A stretch of DNA of 14,207 nt, from positions 1 through 14,207 of the IMG/VR virus record IMGVR_UViG_3300042869_000717; one strand, 5' to 3'. The translations under genes were made by a program, and so were the position numbers. The stretch comes from a virus (taxonomy: Duplodnaviria > Heunggongvirae > Uroviricota > Caudoviricetes). The notes under the pieces were generated by a model. That model saw only the letters and a program-made list of their open reading frames with translations. It was not told where the DNA came from and did no database searches. This document shows, in pieces, positions 3,476-9,386 of the stretch (within the stretch, counting starts at the first letter, position 1; the number at the start of each line of letters is the position of its first letter).

Positions 3476-4096
3476 ATGGAGTATTGTGAATTACCGAAAG
3501 ATTCTTTATTAACTAAATTACCTAATTTCAATTTTATTAGGGATGATGAGAAAAAGGACAGGATGAATGTTGTAATTGCCGGTGGAGCCGTCCGGGATAG
3601 TTTATTTGGGGATGAGTATAGTGATATAGACATCTTTGGATTAACTAAAGAGGATTTGGATTTATTTGTTAAGTTGAATCTATCTAAGGGTAATGGTTAT
3701 AAATTGGTTTATTTCAATGAGAACTTGAGGACTTATAGAAAGGGTAAGATTAAGGTTCAGATTATATATAGGGAATATGATAAATTAACGGATATTATTG
3801 ATTCATTTGATTTTACGGTATGTCAGTTTATGTTTGATGGGGAGAAGGTTATATGTAACCCCTCCGGTTTATTGGATGTTTACCATAAGAGGATTATTAT
3901 AAATCATCTTGAACCATTATTTGTCTTTGATTCTTTGAGAAGAGTTCAGAAATATATACAGAAAGGATATACCATCTGTAATGGTGGGATAAAGGACATA
4001 TTGGATAAGTGTCGGGAATTGACTCAGGAACAATATGATGAGAATGTGGAATTCTATCCTAACACTAATGAATATCGAATAATTCGATTTGATTAA
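3476..4096 (+). CDS. Nucleotidyltransferase, PolyA-polymerase/CCA-adding enzyme head-domain-like (206 aa)
   Basis: Signature IAGGAVRD...SDIDIF (GG..RD plus DxD) and downstream SFDFTVCQF motif; no HD or anticodon-binding tail. Confidence 0.8.
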   Translation: MEYCELPKDSLLTKLPNFNFIRDDEKKDRMNVVIAGGAVRDSLFGDEYSDIDIFGLTKEDLDLFVKLNLSKGNGYKLVYFNENLRTYRKGKIKVQIIYREYDKLTDIIDSFDFTVCQFMFDGEKVICNPSGLLDVYHKRIIINHLEPLFVFDSLRRVQKYIQKGYTICNGGIKDILDKCRELTQEQYDENVEFYPNTNEYRIIRFD

Positions 4097-6651: not shown

Positions 6652-6929
6652 TGGAAAAATTGGTTCATGAATATCTTAATTCTATTGTTGGTGATAACCC
6701 CACCTTATCGGTATCGAAAGAGAGTAACCATTTTGAGAGGGCGTTTAAGATGTTTAGTTATTATTATATTGTGAATGGAGTTAAGGTTGGTTCGAGACCA
6801 CATAGTGTTAGTAAAATATCTATGAAGTCTGAGTTATACAATAGTATAAGAAAACTATTTGGATTAAATCATGTGGATACTTCACAATATTTTAATAATT
6901 GGTTAAATAATATCCCTGCTGATGAGTAA
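6651..6929 (+). CDS. Hypothetical phage protein (92 aa), related to the small 'LFGL...W' family
   Basis: ORF track; translationally coupled; C-terminal ELYNSIRKLFGL...FNNWL resembles 12990-13301 and 11207-11497. Confidence 0.8.
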   Translation: MEKLVHEYLNSIVGDNPTLSVSKESNHFERAFKMFSYYYIVNGVKVGSRPHSVSKISMKSELYNSIRKLFGLNHVDTSQYFNNWLNNIPADE

Positions 6930-6943
6930 TTCGTATAGTGCTC

Positions 6944-6990
6944 TTCGTCCGGTTTCTCACTTCGTTCGAGGGAATCCCATTCCTTTTTTT
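6944..6990 (+). repeat. Dispersed repeat copy D
   Basis: TTCGTCCGGTTTCTCACTTCGTTCGAGGGAATCCCATTCC-T7. Confidence 0.85.
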
Positions 6991-6999
6991 CATTATATA

Positions 7000-7031
7000 T
7001 TTGGTGATTTGAATTCTTTGTTTTATATTTG
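7000..7031 (+). promoter_or_regulatory. Bacteroidota sigma-A promoter for the TnpB-like gene
   Basis: TTTG (7000-7003), N20, TATATTTG (7024-7031); flanks share ATTATATATTTGGTG and TTTGCTTTCTAAATAAA with the promoter at 5541-5598. Confidence 0.75.
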
Positions 7032-7050
7032 CTTTCTAAATAAATTATAT

Positions 7051-8253
7051 ATGAATCATTTTTTGGTTGAAAGAAAAAAGGGTCCATCTTATGTTGGAGT
7101 ATCAGTTGAGTATAGGATATACCCGGATGATAAACAAAAGAGATGGTTATTTGATATTGGTAATAAATTAAGAGGGGGATATAATCTTTTGGTTAGTGAA
7201 TTTATTGATGGGAAAGATTTTAAGGACTTTCCTGCTCCGAACTTAAAGAGTAAATCTCTTTTCTCTAATTATCTTTCAACGATTAATTGGTTTGATAATG
7301 TTCCATCAATATTTAGGGAATATGTTTCTGAATCTTTGGTCACATCAATTAAAAATTTCAGAAAAAAACCAAAATCAAGAAAACCTTCGTATAAGAAAAA
7401 AACGAATATATTGAAATTAACGACTAATTCAAATAGTATTAGTCGTGGAAGTTTAAGTTTGGATTGGGATAATAATGAAATTAGGTTTGCTCCTACTTTA
7501 CTTAAAAAAGTTGGGATAAATCCAATTATAAAATGTAAGTTTCATAAACAATTCAAAGGGTCTACACCAAAGTTAATGTCAATCCATAGGAAGTCTGATG
7601 GTAATTGGTATTTATCTTTAACATTGGATTTAAAGGATACTGAAATTGTTAAGATTAATAGTTCGGGTAAATCATTGGGAATTGATGTAGGTATTAAAGA
7701 TATGGCAATTACATCCGAAGGACTTAAATATCAGGTACCAATTGAGAGGATTAAAAAATTGGAAGATAAGATTTCAATTATTCAAAAGAGTATATCTCGT
7801 AAGAACAGATTAAACAAGGGTAAACCTAAATCCAAAAATTATTGGAGAGTAATTGAGAAGAAGGGTAGATTACAGAATGAATTAAATAATATTAGAAAAG
7901 AATATCACAGATATGTTGTTGGTGTTTTAACTAAAGGTAAGTTTTCTAAAATACAAGTTGAGGATATTCGTTTGTCATTTATGTTACAGAATAAACATAT
8001 GGCTAAATCCACTGCAAGAATCGGGATTCGTTCATTTGTCGATTATTTGGGAAGTGTTTGTAATTCAAAAGGAATTGAATTTAATAGGATTGACCCCCGT
8101 AATACAAGTAAGACTTGTTCTAACTGTGGGGATATAAATACTGAGTTAAAGTTATCCCAAAGGGAATGGACCTGTAAGTCTTGTGAGGAACACCACGATA
8201 GAGATATAAACGCAGCAAAAAATATCAGAGAAAGTTTGTTAGTTAGAGAATAA
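7051..8253 (+). CDS. tnpB: CRISPR-adjacent TnpB/Cas12f-like RNA-guided endonuclease (400 aa)
   Basis: N-terminal YRIYPDDKQK (IS605 OrfB-type), RuvC-I LGIDVG (D212), RuvC-II IQVEDI (E304), Zn finger C356/C359/C375/C378 (TSKTCSNCG...WTCKSC), RuvC-III HDRDINAAKNI (D385). Start set at ATG 7051 because the ORF-track extension 6922-7050 covers a repeat and the promoter. Confidence 0.93.
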   Translation: MNHFLVERKKGPSYVGVSVEYRIYPDDKQKRWLFDIGNKLRGGYNLLVSEFIDGKDFKDFPAPNLKSKSLFSNYLSTINWFDNVPSIFREYVSESLVTSIKNFRKKPKSRKPSYKKKTNILKLTTNSNSISRGSLSLDWDNNEIRFAPTLLKKVGINPIIKCKFHKQFKGSTPKLMSIHRKSDGNWYLSLTLDLKDTEIVKINSSGKSLGIDVGIKDMAITSEGLKYQVPIERIKKLEDKISIIQKSISRKNRLNKGKPKSKNYWRVIEKKGRLQNELNNIRKEYHRYVVGVLTKGKFSKIQVEDIRLSFMLQNKHMAKSTARIGIRSFVDYLGSVCNSKGIEFNRIDPRNTSKTCSNCGDINTELKLSQREWTCKSCEEHHDRDINAAKNIRESLLVRE

Positions 8254-8266
8254 TTACTTATCTTTG
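8235..8266 (+). promoter_or_regulatory. Bacteroidota sigma-A promoter driving the ncRNA/CRISPR transcript
   Basis: TTTG (8235-8238, in the last tnpB codons), N20, TATCTTTG (8259-8266); no ORF downstream. Confidence 0.75.
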
Positions 8267-8272
8267 TATCAT

Positions 8273-8469
8273 AATAAAAAAGTTCTTAAACATATTGGTA
8301 ACTCGCGTGTGTGTAACACGTTAAAAGGTTAAAACACTGTATGCAGATATAACCCGGGTAAAAGAACACGGTCAACGTGTGATTGCCGGAACGGTTAGGC
8401 GGCTAGGGGTCTCAAAACCTCATTATCCGAGAACGGATAGACTATCACAATTTCATTTGAAAAGCCATT
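8273..8469 (+). ncRNA. Candidate omegaRNA/tracrRNA-like scaffold
   Basis: Promoter upstream; hairpins CGTGT/ACACG (8306-8320), ACACG/CGTGT (8366-8380), GGGGT/ACCTC (8406-8421), TATCCG-agaa-CGGATA (8424-8439); anti-repeat GACTATC-acaa-TTTCA (8440-8455) complementary to the repeat segment TGAAAG(A/G)TAGTC. Confidence 0.6.
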
Positions 8470-8751
8470 ATTGGGATGTGTCTCGATTTTAAAGGTAGTC
8501 ACAACGAGGACACCGATATAAACCTCGTTAATAGGGTTGGGAATCATCACAATTTGAAAGGTAGTTACAACATAAAATCCCCAATTGAATAACATTTTGA
8601 GTTGGGAATCATCACAATTTGAAAGGTAGTCGCAACCGCTGTAAGTTAGCCTCAACGAAATTCAAAGTTGGGAATCATCACAATTTGAAAGATAGTCACA
8701 ACATAACATTTTAACTCTAACAGGGGAGCAAGTTGGGAATCATTACAATTT
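8470..8751 (+). CRISPR. CRISPR array: 5 repeats (36 nt; first diverged, last truncated), 4 spacers
   Basis: Repeats 8470-8505 (diverged 5' half), 8536-8571, 8601-8636, 8667-8702, 8732-8751 (partial); consensus GTTGGGAATCATCACAATTTGAAAGGTAGTCACAAC; spacers 30, 29, 30, 29 nt (8506-8535, 8572-8600, 8637-8666, 8703-8731). Confidence 0.95.
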
Positions 8752-8791
8752 AAACACAAAAAAAAAATGTTACCAATATGTTTTTAAACAT

Positions 8792-8824
8792 ACCCCATTT
8801 CTTTAATTAGATTTGGGGTTTTTT
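8792..8824 (+). terminator. Putative terminator of the array transcript
   Basis: ACCCCA...TGGGGT imperfect stem followed by a T-run. Confidence 0.45.
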
Positions 8825-8879
8825 ATTTGACATAACCATAAATTAGAATTATACTTTTATTCCATAAGGTATATTCATT

Positions 8880-9287
8880 ATGGTAAAAACAAAAACAATT
8901 TCATTTCTAAAATACAATAAGTTCGAGTTCGGGGAACAGGTCGTTAGTCAATTCGTGGTCTTTGAGTGTAAGTGGTTATTCTCCATCATCTTTTTTTATT
9001 TTCATAAATCTCTTGGTAGTCAGGACCGGTTTCATACCCACGCTTTTAATGCGTGGTCTGTGAAACTGTTTGGTGAGTATGATGAACAAATCTTGGATGA
9101 TGAGGTTAGTGGAGAATATCGTATTGTTCGTAGGGAGAAAGTCTTGGTTTATTTTCCCCGGGATTCATATCACCGGATTTCTAATAGTAACGGATGTATG
9201 ACCGTATTGTTTTCCGGTCCATGGAATAAAACTTGGAAGGAATATATTGATGGGGAGGTGGTTCATTATGGGTGGGGGCGGGAGTAG
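8880..9287 (+). CDS. Cupin-fold (RmlC-like) protein (135 aa)
   Basis: RFHTHAF...GEYDE first motif and YHRI...MTVLFSGPW second motif, matching the HxH..E..H cupin metal-binding pattern. Confidence 0.65.
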   Translation: MVKTKTISFLKYNKFEFGEQVVSQFVVFECKWLFSIIFFYFHKSLGSQDRFHTHAFNAWSVKLFGEYDEQILDDEVSGEYRIVRREKVLVYFPRDSYHRISNSNGCMTVLFSGPWNKTWKEYIDGEVVHYGWGRE

Positions 9288-9288
9288 T

Positions 9289-9357
9289 CTCACTTCGTCC
9301 GGTCACTCACTTCGTCCGGTCACTCACTTCGTTCGATGGAATCCCAACCCTTTTTTT
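9289..9357 (+). repeat. Dispersed repeat copy E, with a 17-bp internal tandem duplication
   Basis: (CTCACTTCGTCCGGTCA)x2 + CTCACTTCGTTCGATGGAATCCCAACCC-T7, starting 1 nt after the 9287 stop. Confidence 0.9.
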
Positions 9358-9386
9358 GGTTATGTGGAATCTTTGTTATATCTTTG
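9355..9386 (+). promoter_or_regulatory. Bacteroidota sigma-A promoter
   Basis: TTTG (9355-9358), N20, TATCTTTG (9379-9386). Confidence 0.75.

Follow-up and report, generated by a model that had tools for sequence, protein, structure and literature searches.

A TnpB-sized nuclease, a putative scaffold RNA and a CRISPR array form one conserved unit in a phage clade

We analysed the first 14.2 kb (14,207 nucleotides (nt); this whole stretch is called the window hereafter) of the 96.7-kb IMG/VR virus record IMGVR_UViG_3300042869_000717 (rated 32% complete; G+C 31.7%), which derives from a lake-water phage with a probable host among the Bacteroidota. The entire stretch is present in 18 lake-water DNA runs from 2020–2024. 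Between positions 7000 and 8824 it carries a gene for a TnpB-family nuclease and, directly downstream, a separately promoted non-coding stretch, which we interpret as a scaffold RNA, and a short CRISPR array. The module has the following features.

7000–7031, + strand: putative promoter of the nuclease gene, Bacteroidota type, with −33 TTTG at 7000–7003, 20 nt, and −7 TATATTTG at 7024–7031 (from the sequence and a pattern list)
7051–8253, + strand: gene for a predicted TnpB-family RNA-guided nuclease of 400 amino acids (aa), P0001 (profile, alignment and fold matches)
8235–8266, + strand: putative promoter of the RNA module, lying across the stop codon, with −33 TTTG at 8235–8238, 20 nt, and −7 TATCTTTG at 8259–8266
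8288–8302, + strand: 5′ arm of a closing stem, a perfect 15-nt inverted repeat with 8769–8783
8296–8465, + strand: putative scaffold RNA, resembling tracrRNA (trans-activating CRISPR RNA) or omegaRNA, with six internal helices (covariation and RNA-library contigs)
8440–8455, + strand: anti-repeat, GACTATC and, after a 4-nt bulge, TTTCA, which pairs with the repeat's 3′ half (covariation of helix 7)
8470–8505, + strand: first repeat, with a degenerate 5′ half and an intact 3′ handle (also in the 98%-identical locus L308)
8506–8731, + strand: region of the four spacers, at 8506–8535, 8572–8600, 8637–8666 and 8703–8731
8536–8571, 8601–8636 and 8667–8702, + strand: full 36-nt repeats
8732–8754, + strand: terminal repeat, shortened to its 5′ half
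8769–8783, + strand: 3′ arm of the closing stem, with an A-run before it (inverted repeat and covariation)
8793–8824, + strand: terminator-like hairpin CCCC...GGGG with six T (from the sequence; in the same place in all seven complete loci)

The gene product is a TnpB in sequence and in fold. It scores 185 bits on the NCBIfam guided_TnpB model (cut-off 100) and stays under the cut-offs of the IS200_TnpB equivalog (155 bits; cut-off 425), c2c8 (68 bits; 350) and Cas12f2 (45 bits; 450) models; it falls outside the Cas12f (type V-F) sequence families, and Pfam recognizes a Cas12f1-like TNB domain in it (73 bits). The intact RuvC triad (D212/E304/D385) and the zinc finger pointed out in a preliminary description of this DNA proved to be invariant, the latter at its four cysteines (CxxC...CxxC; C356/C359/C375/C378), across 23 members of the clade defined below. 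A longer frame starting at 6922 would have 43 additional residues, which are absent from every relative. In a phmmer comparison with the sequences of the PDB, the best score was to ISFba1 TnpB (105 bits), followed by ISDra2 TnpB (77 bits), LaTranC (73 bits, the alignment being limited to the C-terminal 134 residues) and Cas12f (at most 54 bits). An AlphaFold model of the protein (mean predicted local distance difference test score, 82.8) gave the same order in Foldseek, with ISFba1 TnpB (8IAZ) and ISDra2 TnpB at the top and Cas12f and LaTranC behind. Both measures set the protein closer to the TnpBs than to any Cas12f or TranC of known structure, which makes it plausible that its TnpB-to-array transition took place apart from those families. 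The preliminary description had raised an independent TnpB-to-Cas12 transition as a possibility, and it is in this sense, as separateness from the solved families, that we find it plausible.

The gene does not behave as part of a transposon. It is present as a single copy in the 96.7-kb contig, and the absence of TnpA, remarked on at the outset for the window, extends to this record (32% complete), in which we found no Y1 TnpA, serine recombinase, resolvase or Cas1; transposon ends were likewise not found at the locus. Nor does the locus have the single omegaRNA with one flank-derived guide that is typical of TnpB: four spacers stand behind repeats and turn over between close relatives.

When 5.8 billion proteins were searched, the nuclease fell into a discrete clade, with 16 clusters at 80–98% identity and 20 clusters at 41–53%. 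Scores are at least 308 bits inside the clade and at most 137 bits outside, where ordinary TnpBs of the insertion sequence family IS200/IS605 start. In a maximum-likelihood tree with the 40 nearest TnpBs, 24 clade rows (12 of them with an inspected locus) lie on one side of a branch with support of 100/99; the tree was built without Cas12f references. The best relative in 401 sampled Bacteroidota genomes scores 95 bits and is about 32–34% identical, and the clade appears, from these searches, to be restricted to phages. A search of IMG/VR with the DNA pattern of the scaffold returned one other record only.

We fetched the loci of 11 clade proteins and of a 33%-identical outlier, L085 (12 loci in all; several contigs end within the array). 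At every locus with sufficient downstream DNA, over the range of 33–98% protein identity, the gene is followed by the conserved non-coding stretch and by an array of 36-nt repeats, so that close and distant homologues alike carry the tnpB–array arrangement for which the preliminary description had suggested looking (scaffold and array are present in L002, L165–L168, L170–L183, L308 and L085). By comparison, an array-like repeat chain occurs in only 5 of 160 ordinary TnpB loci, L085 being one of the five; these controls came from scans, one of IMG/VR and one of metagenome contigs, in which the alignment had led to generic TnpB motifs and which yielded only ordinary TnpBs. The arrangement of gene and array is beyond chance: throughout a discrete clade of phages, nuclease, scaffold and array stay together as a single conserved unit, and the clade is a TnpB-like lineage consistently linked to a downstream array as in the TranC and type V-U systems discussed below. 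L085 (728–2718 of a freshwater metagenome contig) encodes a relative of 413 aa. The promoter geometry there is the same, the scaffold finishes with a handle like that of an omegaRNA and its guide, and at least nine repeats share the same 3′ half. Because this 33%-identical relative has the same layout, the union of nuclease and array is old.

Repeat chains were also seen beside ordinary TnpBs. At L059:2871–4700 (an IMG/VR record of 141,124 bp), the gene has a sigma-70-like promoter after it and then some six palindromic repeats of about 38 nt with a 66-nt period, which may be another phage TnpB–array union; L076, L113 and L118 have chains with periods of 66–72 nt.

The form TTTG/TAnnTTTG is a known Bacteroidota sigma-A promoter. 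A −33 TTG element has been cited for Flavobacterium (PMC8092290). In this form the second promoter that the preliminary description had placed at the 3′ end of the gene is present at all 12 loci: TTTG, exactly 20 nt and TAnnTTTG span the stop codon, while the intervening sequence varies, and the TAnnTTTG columns are invariant in our alignment of nine scaffolds (A3). The coding overlap is limited to the −33 box. The same geometry precedes the nuclease gene, where we infer promoter function at 7000–7031 from the known consensus, and the same −7 octamer lies 5′ of the open reading frames (ORFs) at 3476, 5599, 9401, 9939 and 12050. A sigma-70 scan gave a weak match only (9/12), and promoter-like sites of that kind were no commoner than in shuffled sequence.

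The scaffold is most clearly defined by covariation. An RNAalifold consensus of alignment A3 has seven helices, six of them internal and the seventh formed between anti-repeat and repeat. Cells of the alignment are paired in 98.8% of cases, and sliding the partners by one to three columns lowers this to 26–42%. Compensatory changes are seen at 19 of 37 base pairs, including pairs of the anti-repeat:repeat helix, and none of 500 shuffles reached the observed covariation. The folding energy of the single sequence is unremarkable (z = −0.96), which is why we take covariation as the evidence of structure; it is on this ground that the structured non-coding sequence first described from the window alone is borne out. 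No Rfam family matched at E < 0.49, and a blastn search of the RNA module against cultured phages returned nothing useful. In helix 7, the 3′ end of the scaffold (8440–8446, extended to 8455 across a 4-nt bulge) pairs with the repeat in its 3′ half. Both sides of the helix change together, from GACTA/TAGTC in the window to GGTTA/TAACC in L002, L165 and L167. Predicted duplexes of cognate anti-repeats and repeats have energies of −10 to −15 kcal/mol, compared with −3.1 to −8.4 kcal/mol between the two compatibility groups. The predicted guide RNA is thus split into a tracrRNA part and a CRISPR RNA (crRNA) part joined by anti-repeat pairing, as in TranC and type V-U systems.

Two inverted arms enclose the scaffold and the array. 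They pair over 15–21 bp in all seven loci with a complete array, with compensatory changes; the inner nine or ten pairs of four of them are given here.

Window: 5′ arm ATTGGTAAC, 3′ arm GTTACCAAT
L171: 5′ arm AATCAATAAC, 3′ arm GTTATTGATT
L172: 5′ arm AATTAATAAC, 3′ arm GTTATTAATT
L182: 5′ arm AATCGATGAC, 3′ arm GTCATCGATT

L167 departs from this by one G-U pair and L165 by one mismatch, and the G-U pair argues for an RNA stem rather than a DNA site. By analogy with rRNA precursors, this closing stem could be a processing site of the RNase III type, or it could protect the ends of the RNA. A hairpin with a T-run follows it in all seven complete loci; a simple scan did not flag this hairpin, probably because its loop exceeds the 3–8-nt limit of the scan.

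In two metatranscriptome runs from different studies, the sole contigs that fall on 6900–8900 are one of 151 nt at 8306–8456 and one of 170 nt at 8296–8465. In both cases this is the scaffold, flanked by the 5′ arm and by the first repeat. Where they differ from the window the stems are kept: 8368 A>G yields a G-U pair, 8420 T>C turns G-U into G-C, and the changes at 8371–8375 lie in a loop. From these contigs we take no more than a weak hint that a discrete and stable tracrRNA-like RNA exists. In L002, L165, L167 and L085, the scaffold itself ends in a 12-nt repeat-like handle with a guide directly after it, and full repeats follow. This first guide is common to L002 and L167 (28/30 nt), which share no later spacers.

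The array is regular, as had been reported from the window alone: five repeat copies based on a 36-nt unit and four spacers of 29–30 nt, with a start-to-start period of 65–66 nt. Its repeats belong to the kind that accompanies Cas13b. The frame GTTG-N13-TTTG-RRR-GGTA-N3-ACAAC, scanned in 185,579 species genomes, occurs in at least 120 stretches, nearly all of them in Bacteroidota (including Bergeyella zoohelcum, Segatella buccae and Flavobacterium columnare). Many of these bacterial arrays lie near an ORF of about 1,100–1,240 residues, and six neighbouring genes that were tested score 782–907 bits on a Cas13b model. The window repeat is identical at 32 of 36 positions, and at 13 of the 16 positions left free by the pattern, to a Chryseobacterium repeat (L252) whose neighbouring gene scores 853 bits on that model; other phage subclades have their best matches in the type VI-B repeats of other hosts. 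The 36-nt repeat form and the spacers of about 30 nt are therefore those of type VI-B arrays, and it is the nuclease, not cas13b, that stands beside the phage array. No relative of P0001 was found at the bacterial type VI-B loci examined. A search of the 96.7-kb contig returned no match to Cas13b, although the control genomes for that search also lacked the family. Covariation between scaffold and repeat makes the phage nuclease the likeliest user of the array.

Spacers turn over quickly. L308 shares no spacer with the window, although its nuclease is 98% and its scaffold 99% identical, and two pairs of loci with identical proteins (L179 and L180; L172 and L178) differ in the scaffold-proximal spacer. 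The last spacer starts alike (CATAAC or CATAA) in the window (8703–8715), L165 (4750–4765), L002 (6621–6626) and L172 (4653–4658), which have no other spacer in common; this start may be an inherited trailer-end spacer or a part of the trailer. Variation at the scaffold-proximal spacer and likeness of the last one fit the polarity expected if acquisition occurs at the scaffold end. Comparison of 8470–8535 with L308:3295–3360 shows that the degenerate first repeat is kept while the adjoining spacer differs; insertion of spacers at the first full repeat would not by itself account for that difference, of which recombination between arrays is one possible source. In F. columnare, type VI-B arrays gain spacers in trans through the Cas1 of a type II-C system (PMC8092290); by analogy, in-trans adaptation of this sort would explain the turnover in the clade, and the spacers were probably acquired through host machinery.

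One candidate target was found. A 598-nt contig from a lake DNA run contains a 32-nt stretch that matches spacer 3 and one base on each side of it with two mismatches. The contig has a depth of 3, compared with 35 for the phage, and its flanks are not array sequence; the 5′ flank ends in ...GGTTTCT-C, and the flanking sequence has no match in IMG/VR. The four spacers also have no match in the bacterial type VI-B loci, and no spacer among 80 bacterial array loci is directed against the phage. In a relative, the spacer at L165:4618–4647 matches 19/20 nt (about 21/29 overall) at L167:4924–4943 and L002:7385–7404, about 120 nt beyond the module. This match, which is marginal and AT-rich, hints weakly at targeting between related phages.

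The locus is a further case of a published kind, to which TranC, V-U* and the phage-borne TranC9 belong, with some details that the accounts cited do not describe. Forty V-U* branches (V-U6 to V-U45) have been reported that consist of TnpB and downstream arrays with no other cas genes (Altae-Tran et al., PNAS 2023, PMC10691335). Makarova et al. (2025, PMC12669027) recognize about 50 independent TnpB–array events. The clade studied here resembles these branches in its tie to a downstream array, the lack of other cas genes and, among them, many independent origins; it differs in that it appears to be phage-restricted. Systems of the TranC class (transposon–CRISPR intermediates; Jin et al., Cell 2025, as cited in PMC13565253) divide the omegaRNA between a tracrRNA and a crRNA. 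As far as these sources describe them, TranC and the window share a TnpB-sized nuclease without enlarged recognition (REC) and wedge (WED) domains, a short downstream array, the absence of adaptation genes and a guide RNA split into tracrRNA-like and crRNA parts. A preprint describes an active, phage-borne TranC9, from a clade that averages 414 aa, with five repeats (bioRxiv 10.64898/2026.03.27.714800). This CauTranC9 is, like the window locus, encoded by a tailed phage, and is described as having 38-bp repeats, compared with 36 nt here. The solved LaTranC aligns with the window protein over the C-terminal 134 residues only. In the TranC and V-U accounts consulted we found no description of repeats of the type VI-B kind, of a covarying closing stem or of a guide fused to the scaffold.

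ISFba1 and ISDra2 TnpB with their omegaRNA or right-end element RNA (reRNA; PDB 8IAZ, 8H1J and 8EXA) are the best matches in sequence and fold, with the same domain order and catalytic residues and an RNA encoded directly after the gene; the 12-nt scaffold handle with its adjoining guide in L002, L165, L167 and L085 recalls the omegaRNA itself. Unlike these elements, the window locus lacks TnpA and transposon ends, has several exchangeable guides and provides its scaffold with a promoter of its own. Cas12f (AsCas12f, CnCas12f1, OsCas12f and Un1Cas12f) is likewise a miniature RuvC effector with a tracrRNA, a short array and 36–37-nt repeats with GTTG...CAAC-like ends, but the similarity of the window protein to it is lower (at most 54 bits, against 105 to TnpB) and the enlargements of REC and WED are absent. 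With the type VI-B arrays of Bacteroidota, the locus shares the repeat family, the 36-nt repeat with 30-nt spacers, the lack of adjacent cas1 and cas2, and variation at the end where transcription starts. It differs from them in its neighbour, a nuclease of the DNA-cutting TnpB type rather than Cas13b, in the scaffold RNA at the position of the leader and in its phage carrier.

We propose, with a probability of roughly 75%, that this is a phage-borne, TnpB-sized effector module of type V-like character and of the TranC or V-U kind, equipped with its own tracrRNA-like scaffold. The multi-guide, miniature type V-like effector of the preliminary description gains support from the covariation of scaffold and repeat and from the conserved layout. 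The promoter in the 3′ end of the gene would produce one precursor comprising the 5′ arm, scaffold, array, 3′ arm and terminator, which host RNases, perhaps RNase III at the closing stem, would convert into a scaffold of about 170 nt and repeat–spacer units. The scaffold would pair over 12–15 bp with the last 20 or so nt of each repeat; the nuclease would bind this duplex, take the downstream 29–30-nt spacer as its guide and cut matching DNA at its RuvC site beside a short 5′ motif. The likeliest targets would be co-infecting phages or other mobile DNA. New spacers may enter at the scaffold-proximal end, either through host adaptation enzymes that act in trans on type VI-B-like repeats or through recombination between arrays. 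The locus is a real, conserved, phage-borne miniature type V-like system, and one that is probably active.

Several points weigh against this interpretation. Binding and cleavage by the nuclease are predictions from its sequence. The RNA contigs are assemblies of depth 2–4 from relatives that show neither ends nor strand, and DNA may be present in an RNA library. The four spacers are without a match in the 96.7 kb of the phage itself or the fetched loci, in a related 44-kb phage record, in IMG/VR (searched as 22-mers) or in cultured phages, and matches in 301 Weeksellaceae genomes are either short or inside repeats; the aim at competing phages or host loci that had been attributed to the array therefore found no support in these collections, the one candidate protospacer being from a lake metagenome. 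No target-adjacent or protospacer-adjacent motif (TAM/PAM) is derivable. Simple leader-proximal integration fails to explain the turnover, because the first repeat is degenerate and it is the spacer next to it that varies. Finally, the contig is about one-third of a genome, so that adaptation genes could lie elsewhere.

Three other explanations were weighed. The array might serve mainly the Cas13b of the host, which would process and load the phage repeat–spacer units, the nuclease being incidental or secondary; the phage could in this way redirect Cas13b against competitors, or load it with harmless guides as a decoy, following the logic of RNA anti-CRISPRs. Several features of the repeat speak for such a use (type VI-B length, the GTTG...TTTG...ACAAC frame, 30-nt spacers, 32/36 identity to the Chryseobacterium repeat and the same orientation relative to transcription as in type VI-B loci), it can still fold a terminal-stem hairpin, and the phage subclades resemble the type VI-B repeats of different hosts. 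However, the hairpin is weak in the window (−1.5 to −4.9 kcal/mol), the array is never found in the clade without nuclease and scaffold, and in several relatives the first guide is fused to the scaffold. The anti-repeat, moreover, covaries with the repeat even in a subgroup that departs from the type VI-B consensus (GATGTAACC). We regard service to Cas13b as the main function of the array as unlikely.

About as improbable is a selfish role as a homing cassette, in which the guides would cut related phages with no cassette or with a competing one, and repair during co-infection would copy the cassette in. This would extend the natural role of TnpB, which cuts the transposon-free donor site after excision, and it agrees with the occurrence of the cassette among different neighbour genes in relatives of 80–85% identity, with the repeated intergenic element copies that bracket it in the window and with the position of the L165 spacer match, 19/20 nt, about 120 nt beyond the module in phages of the L002 and L167 type. 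That match is short, AT-rich and marginal, with E = 0.004 for one of 51 queries. The window spacers match nothing in the related phage record, and a fixed homing site is a poorer fit to the rapid and diverse turnover than defence or conflict. The third alternative, an ordinary IS200/IS605 TnpB that lies by chance beside an unrelated or decaying array, can draw on the TnpB-like scores of the protein and on the frequency of TnpB in phages (409 phage records with a match). It is extremely improbable in view of an arrangement that is kept down to 33% protein identity, a scaffold and a repeat that covary, a single-copy gene with no TnpA in the contig and a score of 155 bits against the IS200_TnpB cut-off of 425.

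Under our preferred interpretation, a type V-like module used by the phage nuclease, the origin of the array is of particular interest. Arrays beside TnpB may have arisen by duplication of an omegaRNA segment or by landing of the gene beside an existing array, neither of which has been ruled out (PMC10691335). The clade bears on this question in three ways: some members still have a first guide fused to the scaffold, as in omegaRNA; the repeats are clearly from another CRISPR type used by the hosts; and spacers turn over without adaptation genes in the loci examined. With these features, both the route of array capture and in-trans adaptation become directly testable. It is conceivable, although we consider it rather doubtful, that the array, rather than being built up from duplicated omegaRNA segments, was captured from host type VI-B arrays and is still exchanged with them. 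A repeat of the Cas13b type would then have been joined to a TnpB scaffold, spacers would arrive by way of host enzymes or recombination and the same transcript could arm both the phage nuclease and the host Cas13b. If true, a type V-like system would have been born by taking over the array of another CRISPR type, and a processing stem would close its precursor RNA. With the clade comes also a candidate nuclease of 400 residues for genome editing, with a defined guide-RNA architecture, and a further example of phages that carry RNA-guided weapons.

A megablast of the whole window against cultured phages returned nothing useful, nor was any tRNA detected. An intergenic element (CACTTCGTYCG, GGAATCCCA and a T-run) is present in seven copies, at positions including 4141, 4923, 5507, 6943–6996 and 9289–9363, which are all on the + strand and confined to 4.1–9.4 kb of the 96.7-kb contig; tandem 17-mers lie within it at 9289–9332. 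Two copies flank the nuclease module together with the ORF at 8880–9287. We considered the 54-nt direct repeat that brackets the module (6943–6996 and 9310–9363) as a pair of transposon ends and rejected it in view of the seven occurrences of the motif, each of them on the + strand and within the same 4.1–9.4-kb region. The element may instead be a terminator/promoter cassette that promotes the shuffling of accessory genes. The ORF at 8880–9287, 3′ of the module, matches phrog_4786, which is annotated as cysteine dioxygenase (with no Pfam match), and the ORF at 3476–4096 matches nucleotidyltransferase PHROGs. Upstream of the module in L167 (725–1333), and likewise in the near-identical L168 and L169, a 202-aa gene matches the Pfam family Gad2 (anti-Gabija). 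The region around the module looks like an accessory or counter-defence island.

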